A DNA stretch of 7,528 nucleotides, from IMG/VR virus record IMGVR_UViG_2534681703_000021, one strand, 5' to 3'. The translations under genes and the position numbers were made by a program. The notes below the pieces were generated by a model. It worked only from the letters and a program-made list of their open reading frames with translations, was not told the DNA's origin and searched no databases. Shown here piece by piece: positions 5,685-7,528 of the stretch (its first letter is position 1; each line of letters opens with the position of its first letter). This stretch comes from a virus (Duplodnaviria; Heunggongvirae; Uroviricota; Caudoviricetes).

Positions 5685-6875
5685 TTAATTGCTGTTAACC
5701 GAGGTGACCAGATTTGCCAGGTATTTATCGGTAATACGCTGGCGCAGGGTCAGGTTTTCAAGAGGAGGCACCGGGGTATAGTCGTAGTCGATATACAGTT
5801 TTCCGGCCTTGAGGGTTTCCGCATCGTTGGATTCTTCGCTGAACCAGCAGGTCGCATCCACGATATAGCCGTTTGTTTTCAGCTCACGGAATTTGGCATT
5901 GATGCCGTCAACGATGTCACGAATCAGCGTTGCGGTGATGGGCTTGTCCACCGCCCACATGTGCGCCTCAGCCATCGTGTCGGCCAGTACCTGTGCGGTG
6001 CGGGTGTAGTTTTCAAAGAGGAACAGCGGGTCATCAGAGCAGGTACGGTTACCCCAGAATCGGAAACCGTCACGGCGAATCAGTGTTGTGACGCCTGACT
6101 CGTTAAGCAGGTCAGCATCGGTGCCGGACTCCTGCAAATCCCAGAATACAGAGGCGCTGATGCCGGTAACACCGTTTACCCCGACGTTGGACAGCGTTTT
6201 ATGCCAGCCCTGCTCCTGGTCGATTTTAGCGCGCAGACCCAGCGCACGGGCGGTGGCATACGCGGTGGCGGTGGTACTGGTGACCGTATCCCATGCGAGG
6301 AAATCCGGCCAGATGACCATCAGCTCACGCTGGCTGAAATTCTGGCGGTAGGCTTTCACCTCGGAAATGGTCTTACAGCCCCATGCGCTGATATATCCGA
6401 AAGCGCGCAGCTTCTGACAGACTGATGCCAGTGCAACTGCCACCTCTTTGGTGTCCAGTCCCGGCACGCCGAGAATACGCGGTTTAACACCGGTTACCGA
6501 CTCCGCCGCCAGCAGGGCTTTCAGTCCGGTGTACTGACCGTTTTCGTCGGTGGTGCCGATGATATTGGAAACGGTCTGCGCAAGTTTCGTTTCTTCGTCT
6601 TCGCCGGTGCCGTCTTCCACACGTACAACAACGGTGACCGGTTTTGACTGGTCAGCGATGGCCTGCAACGACGCCGCCAGCGTGCCTTTTTTACCGGCCT
6701 TTGCAATTGCGCTCTGCACATTGGTAATCAGCACAGGTTTATTGAGGGGGAAGGTTTCCGCATCCGCATCGCTGGCCGTGCAGACCATGCCGACAATGGC
6801 AGTGGATACGGTGGAAATGACGCGGGTGCCGTCGTTAATCTCCAGCACCTGCACGCCGTGATGATAGTCACTCAT
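5685..6875 (-). CDS. FI: Contractile tail sheath protein (P2 gpFI-like), 396 aa
   Basis: 396-aa ORF starting MSDYHHGVQVLEINDGTRV, same length as P2 FI as I recall; GGAG Shine-Dalgarno 8-11 nt upstream (rc of 6883-6886); immediately upstream of the tube gene as in P2 and other myovirus tail modules. Confidence 0.9.
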   Translation of the reverse strand: MSDYHHGVQVLEINDGTRVISTVSTAIVGMVCTASDADAETFPLNKPVLITNVQSAIAKAGKKGTLAASLQAIADQSKPVTVVVRVEDGTGEDEETKLAQTVSNIIGTTDENGQYTGLKALLAAESVTGVKPRILGVPGLDTKEVAVALASVCQKLRAFGYISAWGCKTISEVKAYRQNFSQRELMVIWPDFLAWDTVTSTTATAYATARALGLRAKIDQEQGWHKTLSNVGVNGVTGISASVFWDLQESGTDADLLNESGVTTLIRRDGFRFWGNRTCSDDPLFLFENYTRTAQVLADTMAEAHMWAVDKPITATLIRDIVDGINAKFRELKTNGYIVDATCWFSEESNDAETLKAGKLYIDYDYTPVPPLENLTLRQRITDKYLANLVTSVNSN

Positions 6876-6990
6876 CCGTTTAACTCCGTGGTTAATGGGT
6901 GAGTGGTATTTTCAGTTGTGCCGGAGATGTCAGGCTATTTGTCCCGGTTGGCTAAGGGATGACACAATTTATTCTTTGTCGCTGATGAGG
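6876..6990 (-). promoter_or_regulatory. Region expected to hold the Ogr-dependent late promoter for the FI operon (P_F); contains dyad GACA-N12-TGTC at 6961-6980
   Basis: Only 59 bp separate the invertase stop from the FI start, so the promoter must overlap the invertase 3' end. The perfect 4-bp dyad with a 12-bp spacer is centred about 95 bp upstream of the FI ATG. It is not the TGT-N12-ACA arrangement I recall for P2/P4 late promoters, and no convincing -10 was found. Confidence 0.25.
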
Positions 6991-7528
6991 GAAATTTTTT
7001 ATAGAGCGTGGACAGGCCAATATCAAAAATCAGCGCCACACGTTGACGAGATTCCCCCGCAGCCAGCAACCGTCCGACCTGCTCCCACTCACTCGTGGTG
7101 AGTTTCGGTCGTCTGCCACCAATACGACCTTTGGCTCTGGCTGCTTCCAGTCCGGCGCGTGTCCGCTCGACAATGAGTTCTCGTTCCATTTCAGCCAGGG
7201 CACCCATCACATGAAAGAAAAAACGCCCCATCGGCGTGCTGGTATCAATGGCATCCGTCAGGCTGCGAAAATTAATGCCGCGTTCGCGCAGCTCCTCAAC
7301 CAGAATGACCAGATGCCGCATACTACGCCCCAGCCGGTCCAGCTTCCAGACCACCAGTGTATCCCCCTCCGATAATGTCCTGAGCAGTTTTTTCAGTCCC
7401 GGCCTGTCGGACTTCGTGCCGCTGATTTTGTCCTCAAAAATCAGCTCACATCCTGCGCACTCCAGCGCGTTACGCTGCAATTCCGTGTTCTGGTCATTTG
7501 TTGACACGCGTACATAGCCAATAAGCAT
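6935..7528 (-). CDS. Serine recombinase, DNA invertase (Gin/Pin/Cin/Hin family), 197 aa, complete
   Basis: N-terminus MLIGYVRVSTNDQNTELQRNAL with the catalytic Ser in VRVSTNDQ; resolvase/invertase core motifs (GDTLVVWKLDRLGRS, MGRFFFHVMGALAEMERELI); C-terminal HTH (GRRPKLT...LSTLYKKFP). The ATG is the last three bases of the window (7526-7528), so promoter and RBS lie outside. TAG stop at 6935-6937. Confidence 0.9.
   Translation of the reverse strand: MLIGYVRVSTNDQNTELQRNALECAGCELIFEDKISGTKSDRPGLKKLLRTLSEGDTLVVWKLDRLGRSMRHLVILVEELRERGINFRSLTDAIDTSTPMGRFFFHVMGALAEMERELIVERTRAGLEAARAKGRIGGRRPKLTTSEWEQVGRLLAAGESRQRVALIFDIGLSTLYKKFPSSATKNKLCHPLANRDK

Follow-up and report, generated by a model that had tools for sequence, protein, structure and literature searches.

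A Pin/Gin-type DNA invertase beside the tail sheath gene of a P2-like Escherichia coli prophage and its probable invertible tail-fibre segment

What does a complete site-specific DNA recombinase do next to the tail sheath gene of a P2-like phage? The question is raised by a stretch of viral DNA of 7,528 nucleotides (the window from here on) that ends exactly with the start codon of such a gene. An earlier note on this DNA, made from the sequence alone, had interpreted the gene as the sign of an invertible tail-fibre switch lying just past the window end, and our analysis supports this interpretation. We consider it highly probable that the open reading frame (ORF) codes for the DNA invertase that belongs to an invertible tail-fibre segment of the Pin/Gin type, carried by a P2-like prophage integrated next to yegQ in Escherichia coli. 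The tail-fibre switch is real, but it is also common and has already been described.

The invertase gene and the tail module around it

Over 6.4 kb the window and phage P2 share 94% DNA identity. The gene order from FI to ogr, the Pfam matches to sheath, tube and Ogr_Delta proteins, and the conserved PF site and leader are all those of a P2-like (Peduoviridae) tail module, and the invertase is found in the same strand as the genes located downstream of it, i.e., FI, FII, E/E', T, U, D and ogr, in that order. Its immediate downstream neighbour is the tail sheath gene FI (5685..6875, minus strand), recognised by the Pfam families Phage_sheath_1, Phage_sheath_1C and Gp18_domIII_N. The earlier note had described the invertase as co-oriented with the tail genes and only 59 bp from FI, and this was found to be correct, the spacer that separates the stop of the invertase from the start of FI running from 6876 to 6934 (minus strand). 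In the alignment with P2 this spacer is homologous to the PF core promoter and the FI leader, and mapping from the P2 annotation places the expected transcription start near 6899–6901. The homologue of the PF binding site for the late-promoter activator Ogr (6944..6972, minus strand; from the P2 annotation and the alignment) overlaps the last codons of the invertase, and it is at this site that homology to P2 restarts. The final 10 codons of the invertase (LCHPLANRDK, then stop) come from this P2-homologous promoter DNA, and because they are read from it the protein has a C-terminal extension of 13 aa relative to PinE, found also relative to Fin and Cin. In canonical P2 the interval between G and FI is annotated with fun(Z) on the opposite strand, and it is this Z/fun slot that the invertase occupies, as had been proposed. 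Regarding its origin, the module would have taken the place of what canonical P2 has as far as the PF activator site, from the C-terminal end of H through G and the terminator to fun(Z).

The gene itself (6935..7528, minus strand) is complete and codes for 197 aa. The ATG, read as the reverse complement of 7526–7528, is confirmed as the final triplet of the window, and the TAG stop is located at 6935–6937. In the alignment PinE, Gin and Cin begin at the same point, with MLIGYVRVS. The Pfam family Resolvase matched aa 3–135 with an E-value of 2.8e-52 and 177 bits against a cutoff of 23, far above chance, and HTH_7 matched aa 138–181 (E 4.3e-13), while among the NCBIfam models none for the invertase family reached its cutoff. 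The catalytic domain of resolvase type (aa 3–135; 7124..7522, minus strand), delimited by Pfam and alignment, includes R7, S9, D64, R65 and R68, which are invariant among this protein, PinE, Gin and Cin, and also K46, K47 and R50 of helix B. Codon 9 (TCA; 7502..7504, minus strand) is aligned with Gin S9 and equivalent to Hin S10; as is established for the family, this serine would be the nucleophile. The Gin structure 3uj3 has an Ala at the same position. The C-terminal helix-turn-helix DNA-binding domain (aa 138–181; 6986..7117, minus strand) was recognised by HTH_7 and by a match to the Hin DNA-binding domain 1hcr.

At the protein level the identities were 85–86% to PinE of e14, 85% to Fin of Fels-2, 79% to Cin of P1, 75–77% to Gin of Mu and 74–80% to the two invertases of P2 prophages in EPEC E2348/69, falling to 40% for PinQ and PinR. 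The comparison with Gin, Cin and Pin that the earlier note had called for, carried out by these identities and by a neighbour-joining tree, groups the protein with Pin and Fin. We assign it to the Pin/Fin subgroup of the Hin/Gin/Cin/Pin family on the basis of the ORF list, the Pfam domains and the identities (75–86% to Gin, Cin, Fin and PinE), and its description as a complete Gin/Pin-type serine invertase at 6935–7528 was therefore right. The identical protein was found in 40 blocks of the public assembly collection.

Resolvases share the Pfam domains of this invertase, and the gamma-delta and Tn3 resolvases are among its PDB matches, so that a resolvase of the Tn3/gamma-delta type, or another serine recombinase with an unrelated target (cointegrate resolution, shufflon), had to be considered as well. 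The resolvase matches are far weaker, though, with an E-value of 4e-33 for gamma-delta resolvase against 4e-94 for the top PDB matches, the Gin structures 3uj3 and 4m6f. Besides, the residues that contact Fis, specific to invertases, are present. Using the numbering offset of 1 between Hin and our protein taken from the 1hcr match, Q150, R153 and L154 correspond to Hin Q151, R154 and L155 and are invariant in PinE, Gin and Cin, and K46, K47 and R50 correspond to Hin 47, 48 and 51, with the basic character retained. Hin Q151, R154 and L155 have been proposed as Fis contacts, and McLean et al. described these three residues and the basic positions 47, 48 and 51 as conserved only in Fis/enhancer-dependent invertases (PMC3798978). 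Judged from these residues, the protein is a member of the Fis/enhancer-dependent serine DNA invertases (Hin/Gin/Cin/Pin/Fin, the "Din" family).

Crossover sites and fibre cassettes past the window end

The source contig (L021 in our comparison; GCA_000355295.1, contig AQEY01000014.1) is 100% identical to all 7528 window bases and continues for 323 nt past the invertase ATG. The earlier note had expected a crossover site just past 7528, and a 26-bp site, TTCTCCCAAACCAACGTTTATGAAAA, was indeed found in this contig at positions 243–268, 55 bp upstream of the ATG. It is imperfectly palindromic, with half-sites TTCTCCCAAACC and CGTTTATGAAAA on either side of a central AA, and it is identical to the invertase-proximal site of e14. 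The 55-bp spacer between site and ATG contains a GGGGGA Shine-Dalgarno sequence. A simple scan of positions 6700–7528 of the window and 1–1000 of the contig detected no sigma-70 consensus promoter for the invertase. Three terminator-like matches inside the invertase gene, located in conserved coding sequence, were discarded as coding by-products; the T-run at 7223–7237 was treated in this way because it stems from the codons for GRFFFH.

The last 242 nt of the contig, which are the first of the segment, contain a silent gp53-like fibre C-terminal cassette that is read away from the invertase. The same 242 nt were found in two relatives (L003 and L004) at the opposite end of the segment, where they are fused to the fibre gene H. 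Of the nearest complete genomes, L003 and L004 are 98.5% identical to the window and L028 is 99.3% identical, and L028 has the window's own junction and two sites separated by 1.9 kb. In the relatives the distal site, TTCTCCCAAACCAAGGTATGCGAGAA, with the half-sites TTCTCCCAAACC-AA-GGTATGCGAGAA, is located in inverted orientation inside H, 1.8–1.9 kb from the proximal site. The pair was found in L001–L005, L014, L015, L018, L019 and L028, and it is the strongest inverted repeat of the region in L001 and L002; an analogous pair of sites, with different half-sites, appears in L016. A second inverted site in H was present in every relative whose sequence reaches far enough, save for the deletion derivative L017, in which the whole fibre region is missing, gpA is located 570 nt upstream of an identical invertase and only the proximal site is left.

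A common layout was observed in L001, L002 (phage pro483), L003–L007, L014, L015, L018, L019 and L028. One strand of the segment carries a silent fibre C-terminus and a tail-fibre assembly gene, and the other strand carries a second tail-fibre assembly gene and the expressed C-terminus of H. Two convergent Caudo_TAP/tfa genes are found between the cassettes in L001, L002, L005–L007, L014, L015, L018, L019 and L028, and in L001 a tfaE homologue is annotated. The proximal and distal sites share the codon phase. Inversion in silico of L001 and L002, as well as the natural pair L006/L007, gave in both orientations an intact H (445/373, 399/439 and 399/439 aa, respectively), and the alternative H proteins share their first 277–280 aa. 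In L003 and L004 the fibre genes are frameshifted, possibly from sequencing errors. The two inverted sites flanking opposed fibre C-termini and assembly genes that the earlier note predicted are thus present in the relatives, 1.8–1.9 kb apart, and the alternative C-termini and chaperones found in them identify the region, at the level of sequence, as an invertible tail-fibre segment of the type of Mu G, P1 C and e14 P.

The sites bear also on the nature of the recombinase. They are of the gix/pix type, single 26-bp sequences in inverted orientation, and neither a transposase nor a res-like array was found nearby, either in the window or in the flanks of the relatives; we therefore rejected a Tn3/gamma-delta resolvase. 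A shufflon consists of the tyrosine recombinase Rci and multiple sfx repeats in pilV. Here the recombinase is of the serine type and its target is a phage fibre gene with two sites, so a shufflon of the Rci type was rejected as well. Taken together with the protein matches, this leaves a resolvase or any serine recombinase with an unrelated target practically without a chance. The finding of an inverted repeat pair and of fibre genes, and of a recombinase that is not of the tyrosine type of the shufflon, fits none of the outcomes that the earlier note had named as refuting its interpretation.

The source contig stops 242 nt into the segment, and its invertase might be an orphan or a relic in a degraded prophage, with the distal site or H missing and nothing left to flip. 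Deletion derivatives such as L017 occur, and the EPEC prophage L011 is a remnant. The invertase ORF is intact, though, and identical in many genomes; the proximal site of the source is perfect and the cassette comes directly after it; and the nearest complete relatives (L003, L004 and L028, with identities of 97–98.5%) all carry two sites. Short-read assemblies typically break inside the segment at loci of this kind (L020, L022 and L023 are other cases), and the EPEC remnant flips in experiments nonetheless (PMC4272514). A relic in the source genome is in our opinion very unlikely.

Inversion of the segment and its probable mechanism

The comparison of closely related genomes provided evidence of inversion. 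The O157:H7 strains EC4115 and TW14359 (the pair L006/L007), presumably both isolates of the 2006 spinach outbreak, are identical over 8501 nt save for 1875 bp that are the exact reverse complement of each other, and the breakpoints are flush with the 26-bp sites. Similarly, L018 differs from L015 and L019 by an exact reverse complement of 1811 bp, the invertase protein being identical in all of them. In this case the inner half-site has a C/A polymorphism at its position 7 that has changed places between the two sites, the trace that strand exchange at the central AA should leave. The segment of L028 is the reverse complement of that of L003 (97.9% over 1923 nt), with collinear flanks. Over a larger sample, the junction of pro483 as deposited was found in 125 complete E. 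coli genomes and a synthetic inverted junction in 283. Both of the orientations that the earlier note had proposed to look for do exist, in these three sets of genomes and with breakpoints located exactly at the sites, and this comparison of relatives indicates that the segment between the sites inverts. Draft contigs with the identical invertase often end at or inside the segment (L020–L023), a pattern that fits mixed orientations or repeats shared with other prophages. There is also prior experimental evidence for a P2-like prophage of EPEC E2348/69, in which Goldberg et al. (2014; PMC4272514) detected inversion of the segment 2977580–2979467 with read pairs and with PCR. Flipping would then be expected in the source strain too.

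The mechanism is likely to be the one of the family. Dimers of the invertase would bind the two inverted 26-bp sites, the first located just past the window end, at 55 bp from the ATG on its upstream side, and the second inside H, ~1.9 kb further. An enhancer with Fis bound to it, contained in the initial ~90 bp of the invertase gene, would bring the sites together on supercoiled DNA, Ser9 would cut with a 2-bp stagger at the central AA/TT, and half of the tetramer would rotate, so that the segment is religated in the flipped orientation. In this way the constant N-terminus of H (~277–280 aa) would be fused in frame with either of two receptor-binding C-termini, and behind each of these lies a tail-fibre assembly chaperone of its own. 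With each C-terminus provided with its own chaperone, the progeny phage would be of two host-range types, and inversion would probably affect host range.

The enhancer could be located within the window. The P1 GenBank record annotates the Cin enhancer at nt 19–90 of cin, and the homologous stretch of our gene (coding nt 19–90; 7439..7510, minus strand) aligns to it free of gaps, with the 15-mers conserved. On this homology we propose it as a putative recombinational enhancer. An enhancer is expected to have two Fis sites ~48 bp apart in cis, and two Fis-like 15-mers of the form G-N13-C are found in the stretch, at nt 22–36 (7493–7507) and nt 71–85 (7444–7458), 49 bp apart. The distance between the centres of the proximal one and of the crossover site is ~97 bp, similar to the ~100 bp in the native hin locus (PMC3798978). 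Extra conservation of synonymous sites over nt 19–90 was not clearly elevated when compared with codons 31–140 (52% vs 35% against cin, 68% vs 63% against pinE and 43% vs 47% against gin), and for this reason the enhancer is retained here as a candidate. By the gapless alignment and the Fis-like 15-mers with their spacing, an invertasome with Fis and the enhancer would be the probable mechanism.

The invertase might also have a role at the level of the host. In a lysogen it could act in trans on the segments of other prophages (e.g., the P segment of e14) or between prophages, and this would yield fibre variants or rearrangements affecting superinfection, as with PinQ and StfE2. Members of the invertase family cross-complement, and the identity of the proximal site to the invertase-proximal site of e14 favours action in trans. 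Furthermore, in L016 and L022 the crossover site is the exact point at which the identical invertase and the P2 tail module give way to a segment with other inner half-sites; beyond the crossover point this segment comes with a different myovirus baseplate and fibre module, and the outer half-site of the invertase is kept. PinQ has been found to invert the P segment of e14 in trans and to block T2 adsorption (PMC12529663), but PinQ is the protein with merely 40% identity to the one studied here. The arrangement is in cis, with intact in-frame fibre cassettes and chaperones, and phage host-range switching explains all of it. As an explanation of the locus we find the host-level role unlikely; it adds to the reading as an invertible tail-fibre segment and does not replace it. 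That the enzyme also recombines sites in different prophages of one cell, giving chimeric tail modules or chromosomal rearrangements, or switches fibres in trans with an effect on superinfecting phage, is conceivable if rather doubtful.

Related systems and meaning for P2-like prophages

That an invertase can switch tail fibres has been known since Mu, P1 and e14. Among the closest systems are phage pro483 and the "P2" of O157:H43 T22 (Peduovirus), with 96–97% DNA identity across the invertase–sheath junction, 97.5% protein identity, a "DNA invertase" annotation, and the same sites and cassette layout; they differ only in alleles and in the combinations of fibre cassettes. The Salmonella P2-like prophage Fels-2 has an invertase with 85% identity (Fin, STM2702) and the identical gene order (ogr, D, U, T, E, FII, FI, invertase, an opposed H C-terminus with G-like genes, and H), but belongs to another genus of Peduoviridae (Felsduovirus) and has another host and other fibre cassettes. 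Fin is reportedly active as a DNA invertase, a result said to go back to Kutsukake in 2006. In EPEC E2348/69 the prophage L011 also has the segment, the invertase, the sheath and the tube on to ogr, with pix-like sites. Its invertase is 76–80% identical to the one described here, and the element differs in that it is truncated, a remnant whose tail module has diverged further (about 75% DNA identity). Another difference is found at the second EPEC locus (L012), which has three repeats and four states.

The Pin/P system of e14 in E. coli K-12 is similar in the protein (85–86% identity), in the identical 26-bp invertase-proximal site, in an invertase that reads away from the segment and in the contents of the ~1.8-kb segment, with stf C-termini, tfaP and tfaE. 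In contrast, e14 is a lambdoid remnant and its segment affects a side tail fibre, whereas here the P2 H fibre is involved; PinE is also without the 13-aa extension that our invertase reads from the P2 PF promoter region. Gin/G of Mu and Cin/C of P1 share the enzyme family (75–79% identity), 26-bp sites with a central dinucleotide and a segment that holds the alternative C-termini and the chaperones, the constant N-terminus of the fibre lying outside it; the enhancer, annotated for cin within the 5' portion of the gene, would be a further common trait. Their segments are 3–4.2 kb long and the phage backbones are others, and in P1 cin reads towards its own segment, with cixL at the 3' end of cin.

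The invertase–sheath junction was found in 547 of the 5426 complete E. coli genomes. Given this frequency and the presence of the layout in Fels-2, pro483, the "P2" of O157:H43 and the EPEC remnant, the element must be considered already known and common. The earlier note had singled it out as going beyond the standard P2 tail module, and the novelty implied there was overstated, since ~10% of the complete E. coli genomes and several named phages carry the arrangement. No new biology is involved, invertase-driven switching having been shown already in P2-like prophages of E. coli. The significance is chiefly for the annotation of the tail-fibre region of a common family of P2-like prophages. 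This region is misassembled or misannotated because of the invertible segment, at which or inside which draft contigs break. PGAP, for its part, annotates H as a pseudogene in one of the orientations. For the phage itself it means that host range, and any prediction of it made from a single assembly, would be bistable.

Junction of the prophage with yegQ

By comparison with three relatives (L003-L005), base 1 of the window is the first base past the yegQ stop codon, so that bases 1-272 are the junction between the prophage and the host chromosome. Some part of the window matches 5425 of 5426 complete E. coli genomes. K-12 retains an ogrK remnant at the yegQ locus that the prophage occupies. 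The adjacent ogr gene was listed mechanically as an ORF of 93 aa from a TTG start (273-554), a start that is probably placed too far upstream, since in RefSeq relatives ogrK is annotated with 72 aa (219 nt), equivalent to 273-491 in the window.

Coding sequence of the invertase and of the fibre gene

At its 3' end (6935-6972) the invertase ORF (6935-7528, minus strand) overlaps the homologue of the binding site for Ogr, the activator of the P2 late promoter PF. The final 10 codons of the invertase are in fact translated P2 promoter DNA, and for this reason the protein is 13 aa longer than PinE, the invertase of e14. Within the coding region of the same gene we found three matches to terminators of the hairpin and T-run type (7223-7292 and 7034-7048, minus strand), where 0.5 would be expected. 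They are probably coding by-products, since at least one of them derives from the conserved GRFFFH codons.

The fibre gene H, inside which the distal crossover site is located, appears in RefSeq split in two in one of the orientations (5699-6898 in L006, the EC4115 locus, and 14087-15508 in L005), under the names 'gp53-like domain protein' and 'incomplete phage tail protein', the latter as a pseudogene. The H ORF of EC4115 is intact and codes for 399 aa; the split is an artefact produced by annotating the gene in its flipped state.

Rearrangements and breaks at the invertible segment

Four draft contigs that carry this invertase end at or within the invertible segment. The first base of L023 is position 16 of the 26-bp crossover site, that of L022 lies 16 nt ahead of the site and that of L020 at the segment's far end; L021, the contig from which the window comes, ends 242 nt inside the segment. 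These breaks are compatible with mixed orientations of the segment or with repeats common to other prophages.

In the relative L017 (5152-8000) the replication gene gpA is found just 570 nt upstream of an identical invertase. The head, baseplate and fibre genes are all absent and the proximal crossover site is the only one remaining. This locus is a large internal deletion with an end near the crossover site.

A different kind of junction was detected in L016 (5699-7945) and in the contig L022 (17-42). In both, the yegQ flank, the P2 tail module and the identical invertase with its outer half-site CGTTTATGAAAA have stayed together as far as the crossover point, and exactly there a segment whose inner half-sites are different (TTCCCCTAAACC) is joined to them. 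Upstream, the DNA of L016 is a different myovirus module, with the order T, U, X, D, V, W, J, I and fibre, and the distal site located in this module has another outer half, GGTTTTTGACAA. The arrangement looks like the product of two prophages joined by site-specific recombination, or like a mosaic phage.
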